Sequence record: MK327943.1
From: Escherichia phage vB_EcoM_G53
Strand: one strand, 5' to 3'
Length of the DNA: 64,000 bases
Part shown: positions 14,992-40,365 of the stretch, piece by piece
How the letters are laid out: each line of letters starts with the position of its first letter
Position numbering within the stretch: the stretch's first letter is position 1
Notes under the pieces: generated by a model
Databases searched by the model: none
What the model saw: the letters and a program-made list of their open reading frames with translations, nothing else
Told to the model about the DNA's origin: nothing
Position numbers and translations under genes: made by a program

Positions 14992-16410
14992 TTATGGATA
15001 TGTATAGATGATACCAGTTTCCAAAGCAGTTTTATGGATGATGTATCCATTACGTGATTCTTGAACATCAACTTCCGGATAGTCTTTCATCATCTTCTGA
15101 AGAGTGTAACGATGCAGGTAGTATTTACTATCTGGATCTTCAGTTTTCCAATCTTTACCTTCTTCAGTCATTTTTTGGATTTCATCCATAACCCACCATC
15201 CGCACCAGATGTAAGCTGAAGTACGATGTGGAAGAGGATGAACATAAGGTAATTCACCTTCTGGTTCCGGAGCAACTTTATCAGTTACCTGAACTTGACC
15301 TTCTGCTGTAATAGTTTTGCTATCGTAATCAGTTGCAGTAATAGTTGCAGTAACTTCAATAGTTTGACTTCCAATAGATGAGGTATCAACGGTATATACA
15401 TTAGTTGACCCTTCTACAGGAGAAGAATCTTTCTTCCATGAATACTCGATTTGCGCTTCTTCTGGAGCATCAGTGACATTAGCGGTAAATGTAGCCGAAG
15501 CATCTTGCTGAACGTTAATAGAAGGAGGAGTCAATGTAACCCGTGGATTCATTGTCTTCTTATTAACCGTTAATGATACTTCATTCGAAGTAACTTCCTT
15601 TGCATCATAATCTGTCGCGGTTACTTGGGCTACACATTTAATTCTTTTTACTCCACTTGTAGTCGGAGTATAGCTAAATGTAGAGTTAGTTTCTCCACCA
15701 ACCTGTGAATCATCTACATACCACTGATACGTAGCAGACGCTCCAACCGGTTGAGAAGCTAAGGCAGCAGTAAATTGAACTGGGGTTCCAATTACTCCGG
15801 CTGAAGGACTATTGGGAGTTACTGCCAACGTAGTTGTCTGTGTCTTTTTATTAACAGTCAGTGACACTTCATTAGAAGTAACGCTTAGTGCGTCATAATC
15901 TGTTGCGGTTACTTGAGCCACACACTTAATTCTTTTTACCCCGCTTTCGGCAGGAGTGTAATTGAACGTAGCGTTAGTTGCTTCGCCAACAGGAGAATCG
16001 TCTACATACCATTGATAAGTAGCGTTTGCGCCTGATGGCTGCGAAGCTAAAGCGGCGGTAAATTCAATAGCTGTTCCTATTACTCCAGCGTCAGGGCTAT
16101 TAGGAGTTATAGCCAGAGTAGTTGTCTGAGTTTTATTTTTAACTGTGATAGTTGCAGTAGCTTCTGCTGTTTCAGCTTCAGCGTCTGGAACTGTATTTGC
16201 TGCAACTACTTTAATAGTCTTTTGACCGGCAGGTCCTTTTAGTACATAACTAAAAGTTGCTTCAGCTCCATCTTGTGGAACATCATCCACAGTCCAAGCA
16301 TATGTAATAGTTCCACCTTCAGCCTGACCACTAGGTGTGGCAGTAAACTGCTGGGTCTGTCCTATAACTCCAGTAGGTGTTTTAGGAGTTATATTAACTG
16401 TAAAAGCCAT
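14992..16410 (-). CDS. hoc: Highly immunogenic outer capsid protein Hoc, with four Ig-like repeats
   Basis: 472 aa, repeated beta-rich modules plus C-terminal domain; position between 24.x and inh. Confidence 0.8.
   Translation of the reverse strand: MAFTVNITPKTPTGVIGQTQQFTATPSGQAEGGTITYAWTVDDVPQDGAEATFSYVLKGPAGQKTIKVVAANTVPDAEAETAEATATITVKNKTQTTTLAITPNSPDAGVIGTAIEFTAALASQPSGANATYQWYVDDSPVGEATNATFNYTPAESGVKRIKCVAQVTATDYDALSVTSNEVSLTVNKKTQTTTLAVTPNSPSAGVIGTPVQFTAALASQPVGASATYQWYVDDSQVGGETNSTFSYTPTTSGVKRIKCVAQVTATDYDAKEVTSNEVSLTVNKKTMNPRVTLTPPSINVQQDASATFTANVTDAPEEAQIEYSWKKDSSPVEGSTNVYTVDTSSIGSQTIEVTATITATDYDSKTITAEGQVQVTDKVAPEPEGELPYVHPLPHRTSAYIWCGWWVMDEIQKMTEEGKDWKTEDPDSKYYLHRYTLQKMMKDYPEVDVQESRNGYIIHKTALETGIIYTYP
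15556..16131 (-). repeat. Tandem duplication of a 288-bp (96-codon) Ig-like domain inside hoc
   Basis: Hoc residues 94-189 and 190-285 are about 83% identical (TQTTTLA..SLTVNKK twice). Confidence 0.8.
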
Positions 16411-17088: not shown

Positions 17089-17101
17089 AGTATTTCCTCA
17101 T

Positions 17102-17109
17102 TATAAATA
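17102..17109 (+). promoter_or_regulatory. Late promoter TATAAATA upstream of uvsW
   Basis: Exact TATAAATA 30 nt upstream of uvsW ATG in the divergent inh/uvsW spacer. Confidence 0.45.
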
Positions 17110-17138
17110 TAACTATATTTATTACATGGTAATTTGAC

Positions 17139-36254: not shown

Positions 36255-36563
36255 TTACATAAGAAGCAAACGTTCTACCGGAGTACCATCAACCGAAATT
36301 ACTTTATCAAGGCGGAAAGAACGCCACTGACCTAACTTGGTATCGAATGCTCGAACTGATTCACGAGGTTCAGAACGAACTTCTGATGCCGGATTGTTAT
36401 TTTCATATTTGACTTCAAGTTCATCGCGAGAAGCAAACATAGCGCGTACCTCACCGTTAGCCTTTTCAAATACAACACAATGAACGCCTACAGACAGAAT
36501 AGTTTTAATACGTTCACGAAGAACCATAGTTTCTTGTTCAGTTAAAATCATATTATTCACCAC
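36255..36563 (-). CDS. Hypothetical protein (31.1 position)
   Basis: 102-aa ORF from GTG; in-frame ATG at 36551 follows cd stop by 1 nt. Confidence 0.5.
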   Translation of the reverse strand: MVNNMILTEQETMVLRERIKTILSVGVHCVVFEKANGEVRAMFASRDELEVKYENNNPASEVRSEPRESVRAFDTKLGQWRSFRLDKVISVDGTPVERLLLM

Positions 36564-37134
36564 AAAAGTTTCGGATTTGTTCCCAATTCAGAGAACGAAG
36601 ATTATTACGAGAGTACTGAATTACTTCAATACCGGCTTGTTTTAGAATGTCTGCCCAATTTTCAGGAGATCGGTCGTATAATTCTGCATATACAACCTTT
36701 TTAATACCTGACTGTGTAATAGCTTTAGTGCAATCAGGACACGGAGAAAGCGTCGTATATAACGTAGCACCTTCAATAGAATTACCTTTACGAGCTGCAA
36801 ATAAAATTGCATTCAGTTCAGCATGGATTTCATTATTAGCAGACCATGCACTATGAGCGGCCCGATGTTCTTTAGCCAAAACAAAATTATCCACCCGTCC
36901 AAATGCTGTAGTGCCTTCTTTATGCCCAGCAACGATGACCGGGCTTGGTTTATTCTTCAACCAACCGTTTTCGGATGCATGTTCGCAACAGTTTGTACCA
37001 CCTGAAGGAGAGCCATTATAACCTGTAGAAATAATGCGTCCATCTTTTTCAATGACGGCACCAACTTTCCATGAACAACATTTTGATTCTTGAGAAATCA
37101 AATAAGCAATTTGAAGATATGTGCTAGCTTTCAT
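36553..37134 (-). CDS. cd: dCMP deaminase
   Basis: 193 aa as T4 Cd; zinc motifs HAELNAI and PCPDC. Confidence 0.9.
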   Translation of the reverse strand: MKASTYLQIAYLISQESKCCSWKVGAVIEKDGRIISTGYNGSPSGGTNCCEHASENGWLKNKPSPVIVAGHKEGTTAFGRVDNFVLAKEHRAAHSAWSANNEIHAELNAILFAARKGNSIEGATLYTTLSPCPDCTKAITQSGIKKVVYAELYDRSPENWADILKQAGIEVIQYSRNNLRSLNWEQIRNFCGE

Positions 37135-38181
37135 TATTGAACCTTATTAATATAAGTTAACAGCTCTTTAGTTTGTTCCCAACTGATGCACGCATCGGTA
37201 ACGGAAACGCCATAGGACATATTATCAGAAATTTTTTGATTTCCTTCATGTAGGAATGATTCTATCATAATTCCTTTGACCAAATCATTAGCTGCTAAAT
37301 TTTTACCAATACCAATTTGATTGCTATAATGCCCATCAGCGTTTGCATGGCTACAGTCAACCATTACATAATGATTCAGACCTACTGCACTTGCTTTGTT
37401 AGAAGCTTCTTGAATATCAGAAGAATGATAGTTGACCTACTGCACTTGCTTTGTTAGAAGCTTCTTGAATATCAGAAGAATGATAGTTCGGGCCGTTGGT
37501 CCCGCCACGCAATACGATATGCGTATTCTGATTACCTTCAGCTTCAACAATGCCTACAGTACCATCGACGTCCATACCCATATACCGATGAGGCCAGGCG
37601 GCACTATACATCGCGTCTGTAGCTACTTTAATAGAACCATTGGTTGCGTTCTTGAAGCCTACGCACATCGGTAGACCTGAAGCAATTTCACGATGTGTCT
37701 GACTTTCAGTCGTACGGGCGCCAATAGCAACCCATGAGAAAATACCAGAAAGATACTTAATCGTGAATGGGTCTAATACTTCAGTTGCTAATGGAAGTCC
37801 CATACGTAGAAGTTTACGACACAATGTTCGTGCAACTATAAGACCGTGGTTCATATCAAAACTTCCGTCAAGATATGGATCATTTACAAGACCTTTCCAA
37901 CCTACGGTAGTTCGAGGCTTTTCAAAATAAACGCGCATCACTAACAGAACATTAGGAAGACGAGTTTGAAGTTCAGCCAGACGTTTGCCGTATTCAACAG
38001 CAGCAATAGGGTCATGAATTGAACAAGGACCTACAACAATAAGTTTGCGTGGGTCTTCACCGTTCATAATCGAATTAACTTGTTCGCGATGAGAAGCCAC
38101 TTGTGATGCGTAAGCTTCCGACAAAGGAATAATCTCAGCCAGTTCTTTTGGAGAAATAAGTTTTCTGACGACAGGTAACAT
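37134..38181 (-). pseudogene. DAHP synthase (AroG/AroF-type 3-deoxy-7-phosphoheptulonate synthase), frameshifted by a 55-bp tandem duplication
   Basis: Track ORFs 37417-38181 and 37134-37364 both resemble E. coli AroG (GPCSIHDP, VMRVYFEKPRTTVGWKG, GARTTESQ, DCSHAN); they fuse in frame if one repeat copy is removed. Confidence 0.8.
37379..37488. repeat. Perfect 55-bp direct tandem duplication (2 copies)
   Basis: 37379-37433 equals 37434-37488 base for base; flanking bases differ; 55 is not a multiple of 3. Confidence 0.9.

Positions 38182-39278: not shown

Positions 39279-40365
<1,087 letters not shown>

Follow-up and report, generated by a model that had tools for sequence, protein, structure and literature searches.

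The DAHP Synthase Locus

The window, i.e., the whole 64-kb stretch of DNA from Escherichia phage vB_EcoM_G53 analysed here, is that of a Mosigvirus (the RB69/JS09 group of T4-like phages). An aroF-like locus for a DAHP synthase occupies positions 37134..38181 of its minus strand and is written as two open reading frames. The 5′ fragment (37417..38181, minus strand) encodes 254 amino acids, of which 249 are native and the remainder are the residues QLSFF, such that the product ends in ...AVGQLSFF and a stop codon. It matches the Pfam family PF00793 with an E-value of 8.9e-58 over profile positions 8–189 of 270. The 3′ fragment (37134..37364, minus strand) has an ATG start at 37364, encodes 76 amino acids, and matches the same family with an E-value of 1.3e-11 over profile positions 197–269 of 270. 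Neither fragment as written spans the whole profile, and the split point lies inside the (beta/alpha)8 barrel domain. The sequence-only reading had recognized both fragments as pieces of a DAHP synthase and had placed the stop directly after QLSFF; the profile matches and the translation agree with it on both points.

The gene itself is already known and is widely annotated as phospho-2-dehydro-3-deoxyheptonate aldolase. The stop of the restored gene overlaps the start of cd (dCMP deaminase, 36553-37134), while the cd.x/pseT block (pseT at 39279-40178) lies on the other flank. The same cd-to-pseT synteny is found in Kanagawavirus PEi20, Winklervirus CHI14, Marfavirus Marfa, and Bragavirus PM2, each of which harbors the orthologue as one uninterrupted open reading frame of 320–338 amino acids. 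Within Mosigvirus, the gene is at least 99% identical in 138 records, versus about 97–99% for 24-kb stretches of the window (the one with this gene among them) against the best-matching records. The high identity in these 138 records, the lack of length change, and the conserved synteny in five T4-like genera suggest, at the level of sequence, that this auxiliary gene is under strong constraint.

The Restored Gene Product

When one 55-bp copy of the tandem duplication described below is removed in silico, the locus becomes a single open reading frame of 993 bp and 330 codons, as had been anticipated for the deletion of either copy (about 330 codons). The restored frame matches PF00793 (DAHP_synth_1) with an E-value of 6.8e-75 and 251.9 bits, against a cut-off of 25.5, over positions 8–269 of 270. 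Its best match in the PDB is the Tyr-sensitive E. coli AroF (6agm), to which residues 7–327 align with an E-value of 4e-105; the alignment to AroG is poorer (E about 1e-91). The protein passes the aroFGH equivalog TIGR00034 (427.6 bits, cut-off 173.2) and the AroF-like subfamily NF009395 (455.6 bits, cut-off 343), and falls below the cut-off of the AroG (Phe-sensitive) equivalog NF006723 (364 bits versus 568) as well as that of the AroH equivalog in NCBIfam. Because AroF is the best PDB match, NF009395 is passed, and the AroG and AroH cut-offs are failed, the predicted product of the restored gene is an AroF-like type I-alpha DAHP synthase and not an AroG-type enzyme. The earlier designation as an AroG-type DAHP synthase was thus right about the enzyme and wrong about the subtype, given the failure of NF006723 and the closer resemblance to AroF. 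At its N-terminus, the restored phage protein has about 9 residues fewer than E. coli AroF. Unlike E. coli AroF and the phage DAHP synthase genes, the gene in the window is frameshifted as written.

The restored protein harbors all of the motifs of the family, namely the cysteine of GPCSIHD, KPRTT, GARTTESQ, the histidine of DCSH, the glutamate of IES, and the aspartate of TDxC, which are conserved across the five phage genera and in the alignment to AroF. In the structures of AroG and AroF, the metal ligands include the histidine of DCSH, the glutamate of IES, and the aspartate of TDxC. These three motifs lie downstream of the frameshift and are missing from the 254-residue product; in the alignment, the 3′ fragment holds them in their conserved form as DCSH, IESxLxEG, and VS(V/I)TDxCI. 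The TIM barrel of the 254-residue product would be missing its C-terminal third and with it, as judged by alignment to AroF/AroG, three of the four metal ligands. The two-copy allele, if real, would therefore be null, owing to the loss of the metal-ligand motifs.

The 55-bp Tandem Duplication

The lesion in the gene is a perfect 55-bp tandem duplication, with copy 1 at 37379..37433 and copy 2 at 37434..37488 (neither copy is assigned a strand) and the junction at 37433/37434. Tandem Repeats Finder reports 37379-37488 as one array with a period of 55, 2.0 copies, 100% matches, and 0 indels, and string comparison shows the two 55-mers to be identical and directly adjacent, so the duplication described in the sequence-only reading is confirmed by both methods. 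Direct comparison extends the repeat by 0 nt to the left and 0 nt to the right, i.e., there is no microhomology at its edges. A scan of the 64-kb window with k=30 finds it to be the sole exact direct repeat of at least 30 nt, which excludes a chance origin, and detects no further copy of the unit elsewhere in the window.

The added 55 bases correspond to 18 codons plus 1 base and consequently shift the DAHP synthase frame. On the minus strand, the unit encodes NYHSSDIQEASNKASAVG, residues 232–249 of the restored protein, and is ordinary coding sequence; these residues form the most variable, indel-rich stretch of the DAHP synthase alignment. The junction between the copies reads ...GAATGATAGTT followed by GACCTACTGC..., and the 42-nt sequence across it is GAATATCAGAAGAATGATAGTTGACCTACTGCACTTGCTTTG. 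The unit is preceded by ...ATGATTCA and followed by CGGGCC..., and the longer sequences flanking the array are CATAATGATTCA on one side and CGGGCCGTTGG on the other. AATGAT motifs are present near the repeat edges but are out of register. No convincing hairpin or quasi-palindrome able to template the duplication is found at the repeat, just a weak internal AGAAGCTTCT palindrome.

Copy Number in Related Phages

All of the 138 Mosigvirus records that carry the gene at 99% identity or above have it at 993 bp and with a single copy of the unit in every match listed. When 60 nt with the junction in the middle are used as the query, 139 records match, in each case only as two pieces that jointly cover 55 bases of the record, which corresponds to one copy; as one piece, the junction occurs in no phage record. 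The 42-nt junction sequence is likewise absent from IMG/VR contigs, JGI metagenome contigs, and GTDB genomes. Exact searches with the 254-residue fragment, gp37, and gp34 returned no match, and the window was not recovered from E. coli genomes or plasmids.

The best match of the window is Escherichia phage vB_Eco_NicPhage (OY726582.1), with 99.5% identity over 2.8 kb round the gene, 99.1% over 24 kb, and 98.2–99.5% across the stretches compared. Phage 6phi8 (PZ311406, assembled with SPAdes 3.15.5; PMC13600099), for which NicPhage, WFK, p000y, and JK45 are named as relatives, was rejected as a source of the window, since its stated closest relative, NRG-P0074, does not appear among the top hits of any third of the window. 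The 24-kb alignment to NicPhage breaks solely at the repeat, where the length difference is exactly 55. The 55-mer occurs once each in NicPhage and moskry (0 mismatches) and in JS09 and FL18 (1 mismatch). The restored gene differs from those of moskry, NicPhage, JS09, and FL18 by 2, 3, 5, and 8 nt, respectively. Each residue that differs from one of these four is common to at least one of the other three; since all variant residues are thus found in relatives, the restored gene bears no sign of decay.

As all near-identical relatives are single-copy, the two-copy form is, on the sequences compared, unique to the window and not the normal state. The sequence-only reading had proposed a comparison with related T4-like genomes, in which the two-copy form might have emerged as the normal in-frame state; the 138 single-copy relatives show that it is not.

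Differences between the Window and NicPhage

NicPhage carries a similar lesion at a different site. At 108475-108728 of OY726582.1 lies a perfect two-copy tandem duplication of 127 bp, neither edge of which shows microhomology. It is out of frame (127 = 3x42+1) and splits gp15 into two CDSs, NICP_200/201, both of which are annotated as "tail completion protein (T4-like gp15)". At the corresponding site (~968-1097), the window is single-copy and encodes an intact gp15 of 274 amino acids (PF16724, E 1e-95). When one copy is removed from NicPhage, a 273-residue gp15 results, which relative to that of the window lacks one N-terminal Met and has one S/T substitution. gp15 is the tail sheath stabiliser and is essential in T4; the frameshift recorded for it in NicPhage therefore cannot be real in a viable phage.

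The largest default SPAdes k for 250-bp reads is 127. According to the NicPhage paper, 250-bp paired-end reads of phage NP were assembled using the default settings of SPAdes 3.7, after which the "genomes were rearranged using SnapGene" (PMC13390438). This workflow fits a k=127 overlap artefact in NicPhage. The two lesions are alike in that they lie in the same genus, are perfect and two-copy, lack microhomology, have the length of a SPAdes k, and each split one conserved gene for which the other genome is single-copy at that site. They differ in that the lesion of NicPhage is 127 bp long, lies in a structural gene essential in T4, and has a published workflow, whereas that of the window is 55 bp long and lies in an accessory gene.

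An ORF-by-ORF comparison over about 62 kb shows the 55-bp and 127-bp duplications to be the only gene-splitting differences between the window and NicPhage. Because no further split gene in the window emerged from this comparison, the earlier statement that the DAHP synthase gene is the only disrupted one there stands. Otherwise the two genomes differ in length through an additional Hoc domain in the window, a homing endonuclease in NicPhage, and divergence in gp37, which is hypervariable.

The Hoc-like head decoration protein of the window (14992-16410, minus strand, 472 amino acids, with PKD/Ig hits) contains a tandem repeat at 15553-16143 with a 288-bp (96-codon) unit, in frame and at 76% identity, and has one more Ig-like domain than its 376-residue orthologue in NicPhage. 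This repeat is a genuine tandem domain duplication that has diverged, unlike the 55-bp repeat. NicPhage encodes NICP_220, a 247-residue GIY-YIG (SegE-like) homing endonuclease, between inh and uvsW, and the window has the empty site at ~17089-17138; this presence or absence is an ordinary mobile-element polymorphism.

Origin of the Duplication

The sequence-only reading had offered a choice between a very recent inactivation and an assembly or propagation artefact. The choice was well framed, and the evidence favors the artefact: the 55-bp duplication is very probably a product of genome assembly and not part of the phage DNA. T4-like genomes are circularly permuted as a result of headful packaging. 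The default k values of SPAdes and metaSPAdes are 21, 33, and 55, with a final k of 55 being standard for short reads and for metaSPAdes, and the repeat length of 55 is one of the assembler k values 21/33/55/77/99/127. From this, we infer that k=55 was used to assemble the source genome, which was re-opened afterwards. A de Bruijn assembler (SPAdes/metaSPAdes) closes the graph of a circularly permuted T4-like genome into a circle and prints that circle as a linear contig, with identical stretches of k bases at its two ends. If such a contig was then rotated and re-opened at a conventional start without trimming one copy of the overlap, its old ends would meet internally, such that K+M+K would become M2+K+K+M1, an internal tandem duplication that is perfect, exactly k bases long, and arbitrary in position. 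Alternatively, two contigs overlapping by k may have been pasted together untrimmed. By either route, 37433/37434 would be the join, in the former case that of the two ends of the original contig. The arbitrary position would here fall inside the DAHP synthase gene and give rise to the apparent frameshift, while the real phage, like its relatives, would carry the unit once and have an AroF-like DAHP synthase that is intact and functional.

In a SPAdes 3.12 assembly of a T4-like phage, the ends of the contig overlapped by 55 bp, and the overlap was trimmed before the contig was re-opened against T4 (PMC8483715). A 127-bp overlap has been described as a routine SPAdes artefact (PMC5923482), and Sanger sequencing revealed that repeats of ~79 bp within phage assemblies from short reads were artefacts (PMC10438801). 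The repeat in the window resembles SPAdes k-mer end overlaps in that its length equals k, it is perfect, its position is arbitrary, it has no microhomology, and it is not found in relatives. It differs in that the documented end overlaps lie at contig ends, whereas its copies are adjacent internally, which calls for the additional step of re-opening inferred above. The orientation of the window is the same as that of T4-convention records, which is weakly consistent with a re-oriented genome. The record ends of ST0, SHSML-52-1, and PNJ-6, three Mosigvirus records and too few for a rate, carry no untrimmed terminal overlap of 55, 77, or 127; the artefact is therefore not universal. Of note, the record of phage ST0 (MF044457.1, marked circular) begins and ends with the same 10 nt, ATCATCTGCT, which may be a small untrimmed overlap.

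A real and very recent tandem duplication in the phage stock, which would have inactivated the accessory DAHP synthase, is an unlikely alternative to this assembly artefact, although several observations are compatible with it. The duplication is present in the sequence as given, its perfect identity fits a recent event, and the same genome contains a genuine tandem duplication in the 288-bp Hoc repeat. It would have arisen via illegitimate recombination, replication template switching, or topoisomerase-mediated joining, and natural duplications can lack microhomology. As an auxiliary metabolic gene, which T4 itself lacks, the DAHP synthase gene can plausibly be dispensed with in rich medium, so that a null allele would be viable, in contrast to one in gp15, and neutral or mildly favored during laboratory propagation in rich medium. 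The details of the repeat fit this account poorly. As known from the genetics of T4 rII and lysozyme, natural duplications and frameshifts arise by slippage between short direct repeats; the repeat in the window shares with them the character of a short, frameshifting tandem duplication in a non-essential gene, but their end-points typically lie in short direct repeats, whereas here the homology is 0 nt at both edges and the length is that of an assembler k. The lack of microhomology thus fits an arbitrary contig end rather than slippage, for which some homology is the norm. The nearby genuine duplication in Hoc is in frame and diverged, unlike the 55-bp repeat; the gene shows no length change among the 138 near-identical relatives (in the matches listed); and the restored gene is without other defect. 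A real duplication would be exactly 55 bp long by coincidence in about 0.4% of cases (a rough estimate that assumes log-uniform lengths of 10–1000 bp), whereas k-overlap artefacts have three or four common lengths, of which 55 is one. On this basis, the likelihood ratio in favor of the artefact is roughly estimated to be of the order of 50–100, before the lack of microhomology and the twin case in NicPhage are taken into account.

A functional two-copy form, in which the gene would yield two polypeptides or be read by programmed frameshifting, or in which the 55-bp repeat would be a regulatory or mobile element, is highly improbable. In its favor, the downstream fragment happens to open with an ATG (37364). 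All relatives, including those in four other genera, nevertheless encode a single uninterrupted protein of 320–338 amino acids, and the idea of a two-piece gene or a programmed frameshift was rejected for this reason. The position of the split inside the (beta/alpha)8 barrel and the nature of the unit as ordinary coding sequence, present once in relatives and without another copy in the window, likewise argue against a functional two-copy form. The assembly artefact is favored because the repeat has the length of a SPAdes k, is perfect and out of frame, lacks microhomology, and is single-copy in relatives, and because NicPhage carries a twin lesion with a documented workflow.

Implications

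In the case of an artefact, the length of the deposited genome is overstated by 55 bp, and an intact auxiliary gene is mis-annotated as two fragments or a pseudogene. The main value of the observation then lies in quality control, as the same check exposes the 127-bp error that splits gp15 in the published OY726582.1. In both this record and OY726582.1, a gene appears to be split by an assembler overlap that was left untrimmed. Phage databases can be screened for perfect tandem duplications of length 55, 77, 99, or 127 that have no microhomology and are not found in relatives; without such a screen, untrimmed k-overlap errors make pseudogenes and split genes seem more numerous than they are.

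If, less probably, the duplication is real, a viable Mosigvirus would carry a fresh null allele of a DAHP synthase that is otherwise very strongly conserved, with at least 99% identity in 138 genomes. The shikimate-pathway gene would then be dispensable, or even counter-selected, under the propagation conditions, a modest observation, and T4-like phages would be able to make homology-independent 55-bp tandem duplications.

Neighboring Sequence in Other Records

A 1.28-kb contig, FACG01000189.1 (GCA_900013605.1), contains a Mosigvirus-like 3′ end of the DAHP synthase gene followed by cd and WYL_2 and is 96.9% identical to the window. Nextera adapter sequence is present at 1-33 and 1244-1281, such that the contig is essentially a single untrimmed library fragment. 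The possibility that it represents an assembly break at the repeat was rejected, as it is an adapter-flanked piece of a different phage. It is uninformative about the split, since it was the one match in an exact search with the 76-residue fragment and was retrieved only because a contig with its start just upstream yields the same short open reading frame (a selection effect).

In the window, the small WYL_2 open reading frame (Sm-like SH3 barrel, 36255-36563, minus strand) lies just downstream of cd. Its labels differ among relatives, where it is annotated as "tail fiber protein", "WYL domain containing protein", or hypothetical, i.e., inconsistently.
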